Shown one piece after another: positions 53,231-54,634 of a stretch of DNA of 64,000 nt. The notes beneath the pieces were generated by a model. The model was not told the DNA's origin and made no database searches. It saw only the letters and a program-made list of their open reading frames with translations. Where the stretch lies: assembly GCA_012295275.1 (NCBI GenBank), contig CM022671.1, positions 248,001 to 312,000 of the forward strand. Reading direction: 5' to 3'. The DNA comes from Chrysomallon squamiferum (Eukaryota > Animalia > Mollusca). A program made the translations under genes and the position numbers. Each line of letters begins with the position of its first letter. The stretch's first letter is position 1.

Positions 53231-54634
53231 TTTAATTAAGTCTATTTTTAAATACGAACTTGGTCCATCACGTATGAAACATGATCGCCCGTCGTGAGCT
53301 GTTTGTTTACAGGAGGCCGAATTAGGTCTGCAATATGCGAATCAAGTATTGTTATAGGAGGAACGCGACTTTCAGAAACATCAGCGAAAATCGCAACAAG
53401 AACCAGTTTTAGGACAAGAGAGACTAGGAAAATGCGAGCTTGATGAAAATGTGATCGCAAAAGTAGAAACCAGCTACAATATATACCTATCTACATACTG
53501 TTTTGAATCCGGTTTCAGACAAACAGAAAGTGAGTTAACTTGTTTTTCAATGCGGTGAGAATAAATGAATGTGTTTTATTATTTTCATCATCATCATCAT
53601 CACTATTTTATTTATTTATTAATTTTGTATTTATTATTTATTATTTTTGTTTTTATTATTTTTTTTATTATTATTATTTACTTACTTAGTTAGTTAATTA
53701 GTTAGTTAGTTAGTTCATATTATTTATTTTCCAGAGGTGACGTCACCAGGACGCTGCTACGTGACTTACATTTGTATACCACAAGTAAACACACAACTGT
53801 TTAGTCTTAGTTGTACCCTTACACATTTATACATACCTGGTCCTTGGTGTAAATAACCTACAGTTACACATTTCTACATACCTGGTCTCTGGTGTAAATA
53901 ACCTACAGTTACACATTTCTACATACCTGGTCTCTGGTGTAAAAAACCTACAGTTACACATTTCTACATACCTGGTCTCCTACAGTTACACATTTCTACA
54001 TACCTGGTCTCTGGTGTAAAAAACCTACAGTTACACATTTCTACATACCTGGTCTCTGGTGTAAAAAACCTACAGTTACACATTTCTACATACCTGGTCT
54101 CTGGTGTAAAAAACCTACAGTTACACATTTCTACATACCTGGTCTCTGGTGTAAAAAACCTACATTTCTACATACCTGGTCCCTGGTGTAAATAACCTAC
54201 AGTCACACATTTCTTCATCATACCTGGTCTCTGGTGTAAAAACCTACACATTACACAGTTCTACATACCTGGTCCCTGGTGTAAAAACCTACAGTTACAA
54301 ACTAGTTTCTACATACCTGGTCTCTGGTGTAAATAACCTACAGTTACACATTAGTAAGTTCTACATACCTGGTCTCTGGTGTAAATAACCTACAGTTACA
54401 CATTAGTAAGTTCTACATACCTGGTCCCTGGTGTAAATAACCTACACTTACAAACTATTTCTACATACCTGGTCTCTGGTGTAAATAACCTACAGTTACA
54501 CATTAGTAAGTTCTACATACCTGGTCCCTGGTGTAAATAACCAGATCACCCCAACTTCGAACTTCAGAAACACTGACCAACAATACAACCAGAACCAGTG
54601 TCAGAACAAGAGGCAGCTCGAAAACACGGACCAT
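51838..54634 (-). CDS. Cluster copy i: intact via the type C first exon (133 aa without micro-exons)
   Basis: Exons 54634-54521 (MVRVFELPLVLTLVLVVLLVSVSEVRSWGDLVIYTRDQ), 53109-52967 and 51982-51838. The intervening type B exon (53442-53260) has CAA in place of ATG. Confidence 0.8.
53830..54541 (-). repeat. Minisatellite of the exon1/intron1 junction: 15 extra units (mostly 45-52 bp), each with AG, 21 nt, GTATGT
   Basis: Minus-strand unit GTTATTTACACCAGAGACCAG|GTATGTAGAAATGTGTAACTGTAG. I counted 16 occurrences of CATACCTGGT on the plus strand between 53832 and 54525, including the true exon 1 donor. Confidence 0.92.

Follow-up and report, generated by a model that had tools for sequence, protein, structure and literature searches.

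A junction-spanning minisatellite, most likely skipped with its intron, in one gene of a tandem cluster of Chrysomallon squamiferum

The DNA analysed here (called the window for simplicity) is a stretch of 64,000 nucleotides of Chrysomallon squamiferum (GenBank assembly GCA_012295275.1, contig CM022671.1, positions 248,001 to 312,000 of the forward strand); positions are counted from its first letter. Within it a three-exon gene occurs in about ten tandem copies on the minus strand, several of them broken. This cluster spans about 4000-63700, that is the whole window, and codes for a family of secreted proteins, as yet uncharacterised, whose Trp/Cys/His motifs are invariant. Broken copies of exon 1 are found at 60140, 50318, 40077, 33441, 30791, 25041 and 19323, of exon 2 at 29755 and 58612, and of exon 3 at 47849 and 57161, the damage consisting of lost ATGs, frameshifts, stops and lost donors. 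The paralogous copies look like mutual mosaics, a pattern known from birth-and-death gene clusters. An imperfect (GA)n tract of roughly 1 kb (about 62550-63510) sits in the first intron of the topmost copy, and shorter (GA)n tracts lie ahead of exon 2 in most copies.

The copy investigated here, copy i, encodes a product of about 132 codons with a hydrophobic N-terminus which, together with the homologs, suggests a signal peptide. The coding part of exon 1 (54521..54634, minus strand, phase 0) comprises the predicted signal peptide and an N-terminal segment, its translation ends with DLVIYTRDQ, and both exon-only runs, X10 and X11, cover it. Exon 2 (52967..53109, minus strand, 143 nt) was placed using contigs and paralog comparison, and the coding part of exon 3 with the stop codon (51838..51982, minus strand) using record 1 of X10, in which pieces of exons 2 and 3 stand back to back. 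The authentic and most upstream splice donor (54515..54523, minus strand) is given by the joint 53108/54520 with GT..AG ends in record 7 of X11. A 5'-UTR intron just 5' of the ATG was considered and rejected: the contig of a related copy continues unspliced to 54673, and exon 1 of copy i was therefore treated as the first exon.

Intron 1 of copy i contains a minisatellite of 15 extra units with 15 pseudo-donors (53837..54520, minus strand), delimited by a spacer/cassette parse of the sequence. From the 54521/54520 boundary down to 53837 the minus strand resolves into 15 units with zero leftover sequence, each composed of a copy of the intron start (spacer, 16-31 nt) followed by a copy of the exon end (cassette, 21, 20 or 8 nt). 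TGTAG precedes and GTATG follows the cassette in 15/15 units, and the identical donor core that closes every unit reiterates the splice signal within the intron. Twelve of the 15 cassettes are 21 nt long and encode VIYTRDQ (six), VFYTRDQ (five) or VIYTKDQ (one). The other three break the frame, namely the 20-nt cassettes of units 5 (54269..54288) and 6 (54224..54243), at both of which a homopolymer assembly error is possible, and the 8-nt cassette of unit 12 (53972..53979), which carries a 13-nt deletion (all minus strand). The spacers measure 31, 27, 31, 31, 28, 25, 27 and 16 nt, plus seven of 24 nt, and the branch-like motif TACTAAT occurs in only three of them, the 31-nt type. The parse bears out what a first-pass annotation had described from the sequence alone: 15 tandem cassettes of the form AG-7 codons-GTATG, their peptide variants and frame-breaking members, the TACTAAT of the 31-nt spacers, and spacers too short for usual introns. 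Its remark that spacers carry in-frame stops applies to 14 of the 15, whereas the 16-nt spacer shifts the frame instead.

The array is graded along its length. A 5' block (54317..54520, minus strand) includes three ancestral-type 52-nt units (units 1, 3 and 4), each with one difference from the unit of paralog d, and a 3' block (53837..54138, minus strand) is made of derived units with 24-nt spacers, among them four identical 45-nt units. The 7-nt deletion common to the 3' block corresponds to the loss of the branch-like motif, so that the most amplified spacer type is one that lacks it.

Comparison with the unduplicated intron continuation and with paralogs d and f showed that the 52-nt unit spans exon base -22 to intron base +30. 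In both paralogs one additional 52-nt unit with this junction is present, at 45718..45769 in f (minus strand, three exons with open frames) and at 31656..31707 in d (minus strand, the next downstream exon 2 being frameshifted). The extra unit is absent from five other paralogs of the window with intact donors, and the count of extra units across paralogs is thus 0, 1 or 15. The unduplicated intron continuation of the paralogs has no AG at the junction position. Most simply, the cassette AG would have been formed by joining intron A(+30) to exon G(-22), the last G of a leucine codon, and we infer that it arose by chance at the duplication junction. The initial description of the unit as exon end plus intron start consequently stands, with exact limits at -22 and +30 and with an AG that does not appear to be an inherited acceptor. 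The branch-like motif represents the original beginning of the ancestral intron, and unduplicated paralogs have a similar one at the same place.

Donor-spanning duplications were simulated at six unduplicated donors (1426 duplications per donor), and 3.2-10.4% of them yielded a YAG cassette of 9-39 nt that was in frame and free of stops. The micro-exon look is therefore one uncommon but unremarkable event that was amplified: as a repeat the array is beyond chance, and its AG-3n-GT appearance is a single event copied 15 times. In the one-copy paralogs the cassette lies 31 nt from the sole upstream donor. As far as the available part of PMC13644364 goes, animal introns under about 30 nt have been reported only in myxozoans and a dicyemid. 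Selection for the AG as an acceptor is therefore unlikely at the time the duplication arose.

Ten distinct unit sequences are present in the array, with structured common variants and a trend from ancestral at the 5' end to derived at the 3' end; clustering of unit types among neighbours was not significant (p=0.29). Mutation events, hand-counted from the alignment, numbered 12 in the 31-nt spacer versus 5 in the 21-nt cassette (p=0.25), and both cassette indel events break the frame, the 1-nt one being a possible assembly error. The 13 splice-signal positions were struck by one of the 17 hand-counted events (p=0.05); for the GT/AG positions alone the escape from mutation gave p=0.26. Unit 1 of copy i is identical to the units of paralogs d and f at 50-51 of 52 positions (96-98%), compared with 89% for exon 1 and 64-76%, with gaps, for the flanks (binomial p=0.002-0.017 for the excess). 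The exon 1 differences between copy i and d or f end about 20 nt short of the donor, a pattern compatible with a tract of gene conversion or with constraint close to the working donor; the identity of unit 1 would seem to need one or the other. Unduplicated paralogs are also somewhat more alike near the donor (exon end 90-100%, intron +1..31 77-97%, upstream 70-87%). Taken together, the identity of unit 1 and the spared splice signals may count slightly against pure neutrality of the array.

Four runs were compared over 51800-54800. X10 and X11, runs of unrecorded kind from one study, are labelled organism B, an animal that may or may not carry the array; we treat them as RNA runs because their cover is limited to exons and they show spliced joins. 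Record 7 of X11 (depth 8.1) joins 54520 straight to exon 2 (53109), skipping 1411 nt with GT..AG ends, and matches copy i with 0 mismatches over 68 nt of exon 2 and 1 mismatch over 65 nt of exon 1; comparable stretches of the other window copies show at least 4 differences from copy i in exon 2 and at least 8 in exon 1. Over 229 nt of copy i's exons 2 and 3, record 1 of X10 shows a single mismatch. Given these near-exact matches, transcripts are made from copy i or from a gene nearly identical to it, as the first-pass annotation had left to be verified, and they are spliced at the first donor. Array or intron-side sequence occurs in 0/9 contigs of X10 and X11, contigs being a form in which rare transcripts are lost. 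Record 2 of X10 and record 8 of X11 (53045-54640) derive from a second, related copy that is expressed, in which exon 1 resembles that of copy i and the donor position is the same; the start of its exon 2 is closer to paralogs f and g, and no copy in the window matches it.

The DNA run X9 provided an 82-nt contig at 54321-54402 which matches the array with 0 mismatches and spans two unit junctions. Evidence outside the assembly thus extends to the 52-nt unit type and two tandem junctions, not to the full length of 15 units; the distal array (about 53820-54223) is without cover in the intron-covering runs X7 and X9, whose contigs break up in repeats.

The cassette acceptors contain on average 6.7 pyrimidines of 16 at positions -20..-5, compared with 10.2 for exon 2 acceptors (n=10), 12.2 for exon 3 acceptors (n=10) and 7.8 for background YAGs (n=1322). 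An extra AG lies 5-23 nt upstream of all 15 cassette acceptors and within 24 nt of 0/20 real acceptors, the latter descending from two ancestral sites. With a generic acceptor score, which is built on base frequencies and separates real from cassette acceptors poorly, the exon 2 acceptor reached the 63rd percentile versus the 52nd for 10 of the 15 cassettes. By these measures the cassette acceptors look like random background YAGs. Introns that skip one unit would measure 56-83 nt, and with minimum introns of 50-80 nt and at most 5-7 extra cassettes, 31-46% of the allowed cassette paths are in frame.

Tandem copies of exon-intron boundaries are known from amphioxus, where such 'mirages' were described in Adh3, the globins BflGb6 and BflGb9, troponin C and PGBD5; in the accessible parts of these reports the unit is 10-160 bp, copy number varies, many units carry AG/GT and splicing is undisturbed (PMC3087553, PMC3902484). 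The copy i array likewise repeats an exon-intron boundary, its units carry AG/GT and regular splicing is seen, but the host is a mollusc, its junction fortuitously produces a cassette of 21 nt that is free of stops and in phase 0, and sister paralogs preserve the one-copy state. In the 37-bp VNTR of human F7 intron 7, 4-8 identical pseudo-donors are silent and the most upstream donor is used; according to the same source, seen in part, only the first donor is used in LMNB2 and PDGF intron 4, while two extra sites are used in 6-16 intron 2 and CBS intron 13 (PMC1557585). As in F7, the first monomer of copy i spans the donor and identical pseudo-donors follow. The F7 unit, however, includes 4 exon bases versus 22, preceded by AG, in copy i, and F7 exon 7 is internal whereas the copy i exon is the first coding exon. 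The Schistosoma micro-exon genes share with copy i a secreted product and short symmetric units. Their real micro-exons, very short and for the most part divisible by 3 in length, are separated by introns of 0.1-5 kb in the portion of the preprint available (bioRxiv 10.1101/2023.06.21.545858), unlike the 16-31 nt spacers of copy i, and cassette use was not seen in the contigs, so the resemblance proposed at first is not supported. The closest working model for combinatorial micro-exons would be the SmPoMuc mucins of Schistosoma mansoni, which the consulted part of PMC2576457 describes as a multigene cluster where a 27-bp exon close to the 5' end is repeated in tandem, with a maximum of about 20 copies. 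Each repeat of SmPoMuc, full introns included, measures about 1 kb (PMC2576457), in contrast to the 32-52 nt unit of copy i without complete spliceable flanking introns. By these comparisons the array most likely belongs to the known junction-spanning minisatellites and not to the schistosome micro-exon genes.

The use of the cassettes as combinatorial 7-residue micro-exons, as the first-pass annotation had proposed, would require splicing from donor 1 to the AG of unit 2 or a later unit and chaining of non-adjacent cassettes, which would add up to 5-7 repeats of seven residues at the mature N-terminus. The geometry permits it, since 12 of the 15 cassettes are 21 nt in phase 0 and skip-one introns have a feasible length; the splice signals are intact in all 15 units, unit 1 is highly conserved across paralogs, and the matching segment is unstructured in a homolog model (P0002, residues 27-37), so that extra copies might be tolerated. 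Against it stand the background-like acceptors, the minority of allowed paths that keep the frame, a cassette that is unusable in the one-copy state, the sole join seen, which runs directly from 54520 to 53110, and a tandem repeat of the segment in 0/24 aligned homologs. We therefore regard a functional ladder of this kind as very improbable. The same slight chance is given to a mirage turning into a micro-exon array, with a minor tissue-specific ladder of 1-7 extra 7-residue repeats at the N-terminus; the chance in-frame AG would then have become usable only after the array allowed skip-one introns of 56-83 nt, and the one-copy paralogs d and f would represent the unusable precursor state.

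Somewhat less remote, though still unlikely, is a role of the array in tuning expression, with one or two downstream donors used measurably and leading to premature stops, or with U1 sequestered, so that array length would dampen copy i. All 16 donors share the same strong core, and use of a later donor would lengthen the transcript by 52 (donor 2), 100 (donor 3) or 152 nt, and a stop would follow five codons into spacer 1; human 6-16 and CBS, which use two pseudo-sites besides the authentic one, provide a precedent, as F7, LMNB2 and PDGF with their first site only do for the opposite (PMC1557585, in the part available). None of the nine contigs of the exon-only runs contains intron-side sequence and one joins across the array, although unstable transcripts are easily missed. 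An assembly artefact, in which a short real duplication was inflated or corrupted so that the true units are fewer or the variant units are sequencing errors, is the explanation to which we give the least credence. The outside contig confirms the 52-nt unit type only, and singleton variants and changes in T-run length are typical of long-read errors, but the ten unit sequences with their structured variants and 5'-to-3' trend, the two tandem junctions in X9 and the unit common to paralogs speak against it. Two further ideas were rejected: masking by structure, as the units folded no better than shuffled sequences did (z +1.1 and +1.7), with only slightly greater openness at donors 1 and 2 (0.60 vs 0.30-0.56), and recursive splicing at AG/GT, as by inspection the GT that comes after the AG leads into a poor donor.

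We consider it highly probable that the array is a junction-spanning minisatellite ('mirage') that is skipped with intron 1 and is not a source of protein forms. The unit, its boundaries, the one-copy state in d and f and the exon 1-exon 2 join in a copy-i-like transcript were observed directly. A 52-nt piece across the exon-1 donor would have been duplicated once, a state kept in paralogs d and f, and in copy i slippage or unequal exchange likely raised the one extra unit to 15. The spliceosome would most likely take the first donor, so that the whole array leaves with intron 1, and by analogy with human F7 intron 7 the 15 later donors would be mostly silent through upstream-first selection. 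A rare transcript from a later donor would meet a stop in the first spacer and probably undergo nonsense-mediated decay. The neutral minisatellite that had been offered as an alternative from the outset holds up, with a junction-spanning repeat that is skipped in the X11 contig, and a tolerated minisatellite with upstream-first donor choice appears to be the best reading. The array would then most likely be of little significance, one more junction-spanning minisatellite, and the natural series of 0, 1 and 15 extra donors in sister genes would be of modest value for testing whether an invertebrate first exon follows upstream-first donor choice. Should cassettes prove to be included after all, copy i would be a direct case of mirage repeats giving rise to new exons, a recruitment offered as a hypothesis in the accessible part of PMC3087553.

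The protein family was also investigated. Of 29 candidates from a search with exon 3, 27 were relatives; among the named ones the best were uncharacterised proteins of the snail Gigantopelta aegis (73-80% identity), followed by Haliotis, Pinctada and a rotifer, which makes a gastropod host likely. A metagenome scan yielded 26 loci from 118 candidate stretches, which match as continuous (intronless) stretches. Pfam returned 0 families for the three exons, the ESM Atlas no usable match for the homolog P0002, and a search of the open-access literature no match for the conserved C-terminal peptide of the family. Fold searches with the confident model of P0002 (mean pLDDT 86) gave nothing at E<=0.001, the best Z being 4.4 with an rmsd of 3.8 over 70 residues. 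Amino-acid differences between the paralogs in exons 2 and 3 seem clustered after CEEVT, around WF..W and after KFN, the rest being nearly fixed, which may point to diversifying selection.

A second exon-1-like sequence, different from exon 1, is located within intron 1 a short way ahead of exon 2, at 53260-53442 in copy i, at 44891-45073 in paralog f and at about 30900-31054 (all minus strand). The version in copy i is without an ATG, and that of paralog f, 183 nt long and in phase 0, possesses an ATG and a weak donor, its end resembling the Gigantopelta homolog P0003. N-terminal variety in this family could more plausibly come from such alternative first exons than from the array.
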